Shown piece by piece: positions 19,563 to 19,993 of a stretch of 64,000 nt of DNA. Source of the DNA: Escherichia coli (GTDB lineage Bacteria; Pseudomonadota; Gammaproteobacteria; Enterobacterales; Enterobacteriaceae); assembly GCF_013122565.1 (NCBI RefSeq), contig NZ_CP053258.1, one strand, 5' to 3'. The translations under genes and the position numbers were made by a program. Every line of letters starts with the position of its first letter. Within the stretch, counting starts at the first letter, position 1. The notes beneath the pieces were generated by a model. The model searched no databases, was not told the DNA's origin, and was given only the letters and a program-made list of their open reading frames with translations.

Positions 19563-19993
19563 ATCAGGGGCTATTCCATTTCATCGTCCAACAAAATGGG
19601 TGCAGTACAGGGTTGATAGAAATATCTCCTGGGGCTTCATCTTTCCAGACCTCAGAGTAAACCTGAAACCGGAAAGCTTCAGGCACCCGCCGTTATCTTA
19701 CCCTTCCTCAACAAAATAGCTGTTTATTTATACAGTGAGTCCTGTTTCGGACTTCTCACTCCCCATTTGATCAACTGAAGCTGAACCCGTTTTTTTCTGC
19801 ATGCCGCAATCGTCAAAATTCTTCGCCACCAGCCAGCCGTGCCATAACTTGTCACATTGCAAAAGTAGCCAAATTGCTTCAGGCACCATCAGTTCACCAT
19901 CACCAAAAAAAAGAAACATTCCAGAACTTCCGCATCTCGCCCAGCCGCTCCGACTTCTATACTGAATAGAAAACGCCAACATAAGAGAAACCT

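Follow-up and report, generated by a model that had tools for sequence, protein, structure and literature searches.

IS150 in sokE separates hokE from its probable promoter and 5' leader in Escherichia coli

IS150 divides the hokE/sokE locus

The DNA between ybdK and hokE in this E. coli genome is interrupted by a 1443-bp IS150 element, and it is highly likely (probability roughly 0.9) that the last ~90 bp of the spacer remaining on the ybdK side (19613-19700) represent the promoter-proximal part of hokE/sokE, a type I toxin-antitoxin locus of the hok/sok type, split by the insertion. The window (the whole 64,000-nt stretch of contig NZ_CP053258.1 analysed here) displays the gene order fepA (+), entD (+), hokE (-, 18096-17944), the 1443-bp element (18167-19609) and ybdK (+, from 19994). 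The features that define the split are:

17944..18096, minus strand: hokE toxin gene, intact, 50 aa (PF01848 Hok/Gef, 34 bits vs a cut-off of 22), outside the 19613..19993 segment
18167..19609, minus strand: IS150 (IS3 family), with insJ and insK co-directional with hokE
18164-18166 (left copy) and 19610-19612 (right copy): target-site duplication GGG, a 3-bp direct repeat
19613..19993, no strand: portion of the ybdK-hokE spacer between IS150 and ybdK, hereafter the segment

IS150 entered the terminator hairpin of SokE in its loop region, duplicating GGG, and this hairpin is at the same time the second one of the hokE leader. The ybdK side has kept the hokE mRNA start together with the complete 5' stem, as well as an upstream ATG and the 3'-terminal 32 nt of sokE, and the hokE side the first 27 nt of sokE, the remaining leader and an intact hokE. 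Such a split would part hokE from its own promoter and from the 5' elements that time mRNA translatability in the R1 paradigm, and the hokE promoter would now read into IS150, in the same direction as insJ and insK. The hokE +1, both promoters, the fbi-like element, the 3' hairpin and the hybrid Sok RNA described below are placed by homology or sequence only. Automatic annotation labels only hokE and the transposase at this position, and misses the split sokE as well as the orphaned hokE promoter and leader.

The element has the features of IS150, being ~1.44 kb (1443 bp) in length, bordered by the 3-bp duplication and by imperfect terminal inverted repeats that begin TGTACTG, and carrying two overlapping frames on the minus strand with HTH and rve (integrase core) domains. 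PGAP names the identical insertion in strain Combat13F7 'IS3-like element IS150 family transposase, programmed frameshift'. The window copy differs from a K-12 IS150 copy at 11 of the 1443 positions, and no insertion sequence is repeated anywhere in the 64-kb window.

The first-pass annotation had proposed that removal of IS150 in silico joins the minus strand from 19613 onwards to the hokE leader, and uninterrupted genomes bear this out. A reconstruction of 725 nt, consisting of the window sequence minus IS150 and minus one GGG, matches complete E. coli genomes as a single piece with 100% coverage and identity up to 97.5%. Among 5426 complete genomes, 4887 contain it uninterrupted and contiguous (at least 80% of its length covered). 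In the alignments to K-12 MG1655 and strain A30 the junction is crossed gap-free (...TCTATCAA/CCC/TGGGGCT...). The reconstructed hokE-region flanks (17823-19993) are 97.5-98.4% identical to the best complete E. coli matches, and ybdK-nfsB (20000-24000) reaches a best identity of 99.4% among complete E. coli genomes, with O157-like strains closest.

The orphaned hokE leader and its probable promoter

Removal of the element restores a hokE leader that is currently distributed as follows:

19613..19688, minus strand: orphaned hokE leader piece, 76 nt, from the inferred +1 to the insertion point
19631..19688, minus strand: conserved 5' stem (the tac/ucb region of the hok paradigm), RF01794 positions 1-58
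19700-19695, minus strand: inferred -10 hexamer of the hokE promoter, TAAGAT, 6 nt before the inferred +1 (~19688)
18097..18166, minus strand: downstream leader half, comprising the third hairpin and the ribosome-binding region of hokE, parted from the promoter

The first reading had taken the segment, from its sequence, for the upstream half of a hokE regulatory region that IS150 has orphaned, and this view is supported by an Rfam match in addition to the contiguity after excision. RF01794 recognises the orphan half at 19688..19533 (-) with 61.6 bits against a gathering score of 59 (E = 1.8e-12), and the sequence agreement breaks off where the element begins. Beside hokE (18177..18088) the family matches again, partially and with 26 bits, and intact hokE loci score 82.8-84.4 bits. 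Though named 'sok', RF01794 models the hok-sense strand: it begins where the R1-type hok mRNA starts, and the hok AUG makes up the final three positions of its consensus. Similarity of the reconstructed sequence to hok leaders and Sok is thus recovered both by this family and by alignment.

A comparison of RNA structure and covariance with hok-family leaders, which the first-pass annotation had suggested, is congruent with this assignment. The 5' stem (19688-19631) has a predicted folding energy of -22.7 kcal/mol (z = -2.6), and it is conserved in an alignment of hokE, hokB, hokC, hokA and the R1-type plasmid locus, with 21 consensus pairs, 6 of which display compensatory double changes.

Might the hok-like part nevertheless be coincidental, and the segment merely the promoter region of ybdK? 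That gene begins at 19994, so the spacer must hold its promoter, and ~270 bp of the segment are devoid of any hok-related feature: the hok-related part is restricted to ~19613-19700, and the remainder of the spacer, up to 19993, yielded no RNA-family or protein-family match. However, a match above the gathering score at E = 1.8e-12 that runs exactly across the excised element into hokE renders coincidence extremely improbable, and we retain the split hokE/sokE locus as the explanation of the ~90 bp next to IS150.

The hok promoter had also been expected in this segment. In agreement, the hexamer TAAGAT does not vary among 9 hokE alleles, and its spacing mirrors the TATGAT-6 nt-+1 arrangement of the R1-type hok locus; from this homology we infer that the hokE promoter and mRNA start are positioned in the segment. 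A consensus promoter and terminator scan of 17800-20100, on the other hand, flagged neither the hokE nor the Sok promoter, so that the expectation holds by homology to the R1-type locus but not by consensus scanning. An inverted repeat, AGTGAGAAGTCC-GAAACA-GGACTCACT, lies shortly before the hokE promoter at 19729-19757 (-). In strain A30 its 3' arm carries two C-to-T substitutions, with which a minus-strand RNA would still form G-U pairs.

sokE is cut within its terminator hairpin

K-12 sokE (b4835) is annotated at 607733-607792 on the strand opposite to hokE, and projection through the alignment places it at 18140-18166 plus 19613-19644 (+) in the window, the limits being those of the K-12 annotation rather than of this strain. 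IS150 is accordingly inside sokE, 27 nt from its 5' end, with the following arrangement:

19613..19644, plus strand: 3' 32 nt of sokE, comprising the terminator loop, 3' arm and U-rich tail (TTGATAGAAATATCTCCTGGGGCTTCATCTTT)
18140..18166, plus strand: 5' 27 nt of sokE, comprising the target-recognition end and the terminator 5' arm, now reading into IS150
18104..18132, plus strand: putative Sok promoter, assigned from the sequence, with -35 TTGCCT (18104-18109), a 17-bp spacer, -10 TACCAT (18127-18132) and +1 at ~18140
18210-18254, plus strand: terminator-like 15-bp hairpin and T-tract TTTTAATTT within the insK-distal end of IS150, where transcription from the Sok promoter may terminate

The same promoter string, 'TTGCCT-17-TACCAT', is listed for the ybdK/sokE spacer in a genomic-SELEX study of the RpoD holoenzyme (PMC3946193). 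In the predicted fold of the reconstructed SokE, 9 unpaired nt at the 5' end precede a long hairpin (GCCCCAGG...CCUGGGGC) and a U-rich tail. The long hairpin holds an inner GAUA-GAAA-UAUC stem-loop, and the insertion falls between the outer and inner stems. An intact Sok gene with its own promoter and terminator is thus recovered in the reconstructed sequence only, by its fold; in the window, the promoter and the 3' arm of the terminator are 1.4 kb apart.

Here our analysis departs from the first-pass annotation, according to which any Sok-like antisense gene would be located in the segment. Only the 3' 32 nt of sokE are found there; the other 27 nt, at its 5' end, are beside hokE together with the putative promoter. 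The earlier observation is confirmed, and its interpretation is right in the main claim and wrong on the location of Sok. A segment holding the hok promoter together with a complete Sok gene, where the element has merely parted an intact module from hokE, would be in keeping with the presence of the hok promoter, the 5' stem and the sokE 3' end in the segment. Yet K-12 sokE maps to 19644-19613 plus 18166-18140, with the insertion 27 nt into the RNA, and the only promoter-like hexamers rightly placed for Sok are those at 18104-18132, on the hokE side, making such an arrangement very unlikely. As the mapping puts no more than the last 32 nt of sokE there, the Sok gene is not within 19613-19993, and a sokE that is itself cut by IS150 remains the reading that we prefer.

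Deprived of its terminator, SokE would, if made, become a hybrid RNA that runs for ~110 nt and ends at the terminator-like hairpin in IS150. The fold of 18140-18256 has z = -3.2, and the Sok 5' tail is paired with IS sequence in the predicted hybrid RNA. The 18210-18254 hairpin is oriented such that it would stop transcription entering IS150 from outside.

A short mok-like frame upstream of hokE

In the reconstructed sequence, the short ATG-initiated frame that had been noted at first reading is present exactly as described; it has 17 codons, and its stop ends 44 nt before the hokE ATG (18096). Its start is:

19640-19638, minus strand: ATG of the short frame, here regarded as a vestigial, non-canonical mok-like start

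The upstream ATG is preserved in 9 of 9 hokE alleles. Two 1-nt indel sites shift the leader length between 146 and 148 nt among these alleles, and both the length of the frame and its phase relative to hokE vary:

S19-141, SJC33 and LF82: 148-nt leader, 62 codons, overlapping hokE at offset +1 (the mokB to hokB offset)
K-12 and G5: 147-nt leader, in-frame fusion with hokE, 83 aa
85.0412: 147-nt leader, 17 codons
A30 and O157: 146-nt leader, 22 codons
Window allele: 146-nt leader, 17 codons

A leader length matching 148 nt was detected in 16 of 35 full-length matches sampled evenly from the ranking. The canonical mok start, as seen in the R1-type locus, hokB and hokC, consists of GAGG, 7-9 nt and an AUG in the third hairpin, and none of the hokE alleles examined has an ATG at this position. 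The ATG of the short frame is instead inside the 5' stem, ~45 nt upstream of the canonical start of R1 mok, mokB and mokC. A mok frame overlapping hok is absent from the window allele; the 62-codon overlap occurs only in alleles with a 148-nt leader, and the 62-aa product has no Pfam or NCBIfam match. Literature searches on 'mokE' returned nothing useful.

Several of these observations could be taken to indicate a functional MokE leader peptide that governs hokE, as mok does for hok in R1, considering that the ATG is universal among the 9 alleles, that the 148-nt leaders open a 62-codon frame overlapping hokE at the same +1 offset as mokB/hokB, and that about 16 of the 35 evenly sampled genomes have this leader. 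We nevertheless regard such a role as doubtful: the window frame comprises 17 codons and ends 44 nt short of hokE, elsewhere the frame has 22 codons or is fused to hokE, the start is buried in the 5' stem ~45 nt upstream of the canonical position, where no ATG is found, and the 62-aa product is without family match. We rather read the short frame as a vestigial or non-canonical mok-like frame that was already broken in the window allele, and by sequence comparison it is not a conserved mok. Since 44 nt separated the end of this frame from hokE before the insertion, the allele had probably already lost translational coupling of hokE when IS150 arrived.

With the element present, the upstream ATG opens a 19-codon junction frame, MKPQEIFLSTLYCTHFVGR followed by a stop (19581-19640, -). 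The frame terminates 18 nt short of the insJ start codon (19562), and would be part of hokE-promoter transcripts as a small upstream reading frame preceding the transposase genes.

Relation to known hok loci and to the published sokE::IS150

In common with hok/sok (parB) of plasmid R1 (RF01794, PF01848), the locus has a Hok/Gef toxin and an antisense RNA gene overlapping a leader that contains the conserved 5' stem; a candidate 3' element complementary to the mRNA 5' end would be a further common trait. Unlike its plasmid counterpart, hokE/sokE is chromosomal, has no ATG at the canonical mok position and is physically split, and consequently the regulatory circuit cannot operate as in R1.

Chromosomal hok loci with insertion sequences close to the toxin frame have been known since Pedersen & Gerdes 1999 (as cited in PMC11551753), the citation covering K-12 hokE with IS186 downstream and hokA/sokA with IS150. 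As in these disrupted K-12 loci, the element in the window is near rather than in the toxin frame, and K-12 sokA is cut by IS150 in the hairpin homologous to that of the window sokE. At K-12 hokE, however, IS186 is situated 19 nt past the stop codon and sokE is intact, whereas the window has no IS186 at hokE and sokE is cut. IS150 at K-12 hokA is opposite in orientation, without duplication and with a shortened downstream leader, unlike the window.

The closest precedent is sokE::IS150 of the XL1-Blue lineage (PMC11551753, Nucleic Acids Res 2024), where 'exactly' the same sokE disruption is reported for >400 natural E. coli and some Shigella flexneri, and where sokE+ reversion suppresses the RecA-dependence phenotype of strains with engineered antisense transcription. 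Congruently, we detected the hokE-IS150-spacer arrangement in 504 of 5426 complete genomes (at least 80% query coverage). In Combat13F7 the junction strings are identical to the window on both sides, with the same GGG duplication and orientation. The window allele is the already published sokE::IS150, agreeing in insertion site, orientation and duplication with natural isolates such as Combat13F7, and as a disrupted member of a well-known family with a published allele it is therefore already known. Considering that sokE::IS150 and sokE+ differ in phenotype, it is worth knowing which strains carry the insertion.

By same allele we mean the same site, orientation and duplication and not the same sequence, since both the flanks and the IS150 copy differ. 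Compared with Combat13F7, the window flanks represent a different hokE allele (146-nt leader) with 20 differences outside the element, and IS150 differs at 11 positions, the Combat13F7 copy being identical to that of K-12. The copies at K-12 hokA, Combat13F7 hokE and strain 300709 hokB are mutually identical. With 11 positions separating it from three identical copies, the sequence of the window element suggests a separate insertion event by a variant IS150 at the same site.

An oriented landing site for IS150 in hok loci

As a hot spot at the level of the locus is already published, the only part of this work that might be new is an oriented landing-site rule. Complete E. coli genomes were searched with chimeric queries of 280 nt of leader flank joined to 100 nt of either IS150 end, and the genomes recovered, which are not phylogenetically independent events, were as follows:

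hokE: insJ-proximal (IRL) end at the upstream leader flank in 504 genomes, opposite (IRR) end in 3
hokB: IRL end at the upstream leader flank in 499, IRR end in 13 (short-flank query)
hokC: IRL end at the upstream leader flank in 271, IRR end in 1

For hokB, a short-flank junction query gave 939, a number probably inflated by cross-matches to hokE::IS150 and reduced to 499 with the 280-nt flank. The corresponding junctions, with the element and its flanking duplications separated by slashes, read:

Window: dyad and junction region at 19613-19626 / 18164-18166
hokE, hok sense: ...CTATCAA CCC/IS/CCC TGGGG
hokB, hok sense: ...CTATCA AAC/IS/AAC CGAGG
hokC, hok sense: ...CTATCA ACC/IS/ACC CGAGG
hokE of USML2, reversed copy: ...CCCCA GGA/IS/GGA GATATTTC
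hokB of ECCHD184, reversed copy: ...CCCCG ACC/IS/ACC GATATTTC
hokC of KFu015, reversed copy: ...CCCCG AGTG/IS/AGTG ATATTTTAC

IS150 occupies the same position of the Sok terminator loop, within 1 nt, in hokE, hokB and hokC. The reversed copies (one read per locus) are in 3 of 3 cases placed mirror-wise, on the other side of the inner palindrome, and in 6 of 6 junctions it is the same, insJ-proximal end of the element that faces GATA-N4/6-TATC, with the duplication in between. K-12 hokA constitutes an exception, where the other end faces the motif, no duplication is present and the downstream leader is shortened. In K-12 and REL606, hokE is on the strand opposite to hokB and hokC, and judging from the oriC and ter positions we take all three to be on one replichore; the orientation therefore follows the locus and not the direction of replication.

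Taken as a rule, IS150 would recognise a short dyad in the loop of Sok terminator hairpins, GATA-N4/6-TATC within a GCCCC...GGGGC stem, and insert 0-1 nt off it with IRL facing the motif, a proposal that we favour by a modest degree. Dyad recognition would explain why three paralogous loci are hit at the same nucleotide (within 1 nt) and in one orientation, and why the rare reversed copies are found mirror-wise across the motif. If the rule is true, hok/sok loci are dedicated landing pads for IS150, which would explain their frequent 'inactivated by IS' state. A precise, oriented and repeated spot in three paralogous loci also offers a simple natural system for studying target choice in the IS3 family.

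Targets that resemble the ends of the element have been reported for some IS3-family members. For IS150 we rejected such mimicry, as the target, aligned locally to the terminal 50 or 120 nt at each end of the element, scored no better than shuffled sequences (p = 0.64; 0.32-0.99). Nor does GATA-N4-6-TATC suffice by itself as a target, since of its 5 occurrences in the window only that at hok carries the element.

Recurrent insertion at this kind of target has been described for the trg-mokB/hokB region, an IS150 hot spot in laboratory-evolved E. coli B (PMC5289635, PMC4301190, PMC3576414, PMC5419217) that involves the same element and the same kind of target in a different paralogue. The trg/mokB insertion arose 10 times in mutation-accumulation lines (PMC5289635), and among LTEE populations 42% acquired structural variants of mokB early on and 50% fixed them. 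In natural genomes, too, IS150 is found in hokB, at the homologous nucleotide. For hokC, the landing site coincides with coordinate 16,972, which was hit in three experimental lineages and is the only one of the published coordinates that could be mapped to the leader; the coordinates in PMC5419217 for insA-7/hokE (582,237) and trg/mokB (1,272,468) do not correspond to those genes in REL606. In natural isolates, hok/sok homologues were found near insertion hot spots by Durrant et al., with orientation explicitly ignored. The papers that we read contained no account of a nucleotide-level, orientation-specific and dyad-symmetric rule, and literature searches on IS150 with hokB or sokB gave nothing useful. 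Recurrent IS150 insertions are also reported in the literature for the ldr/rdl type I toxin-antitoxin loci, and K-12 ldrA-C / rdlA-C contain no obvious copy of the hok-type motif.

It is conceivable, though we consider it rather unlikely, that the recurrence reflects selection for loss of hok/sok combined with clonal inheritance, and not target specificity. The authors of PMC5419217 indeed interpret the insertions as inactivation of redundant functions, and the genome counts, lacking phylogenetic independence, leave room for inheritance. But inactivation would fix neither the position within 1 nt nor the orientation in three paralogous loci, nor would it put the rare reversed copies mirror-wise across the palindrome. 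Moreover, the 10 recurrences at trg/mokB took place in mutation-accumulation lines, where selection is weak (PMC5289635), and the window combines another IS150 variant and another flanking allele with an identical site. These observations argue for the oriented landing site over selection.

The hokE side and its surroundings

Downstream of the toxin gene, two further elements of a hok transcript can tentatively be assigned:

17883..17892, minus strand: candidate fbi element AGGGCACCUG, ~50 nt past the hokE stop, complementary to the mRNA 5' end GGGUGCCU
17844..17871, minus strand: putative 3'-terminal hairpin of the hokE transcript, from predicted folds and sequence

The candidate fbi pairing (GGGCACCU) has an RNAduplex energy of -14.6 kcal/mol over 8 bp and is the best short duplex in the hokE 3' UTR.

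In LF82, two tandem hokE copies are present ~500 bp apart (60-212 and 564-716 of the extracted locus). Genomes have a median of 2 hokE-leader matches, and duplications such as that of LF82, the one strain examined in this respect, may account for this.

Annotation pipelines call spurious 'hypothetical proteins' across the hokE leader. Those of PGAP, often flagged as frameshifted, are on the Sok strand (for example 326-595, minus, in extracted locus L008 and 1714-1981, minus, in L001). An 84-aa ORF is also open upstream of the hokE promoter (19728-19982, -). Neither this ORF nor a PGAP-called 89-aa antisense ORF has a Pfam or NCBIfam match, and the 'hypothetical proteins' over the leader therefore look like annotation artefacts.

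Further away, in the fepA-entD gap, the Rfam sRNA family ES036 (CssrF) is matched at 17102-17143 (+) with 47.3 bits (gathering score 37.6), as it is in K-12 and A30. The adjacent stretch (17057-17098, -) gives a REP-like, partial hit to naRNA4 with a sub-threshold score of 38.4 bits.
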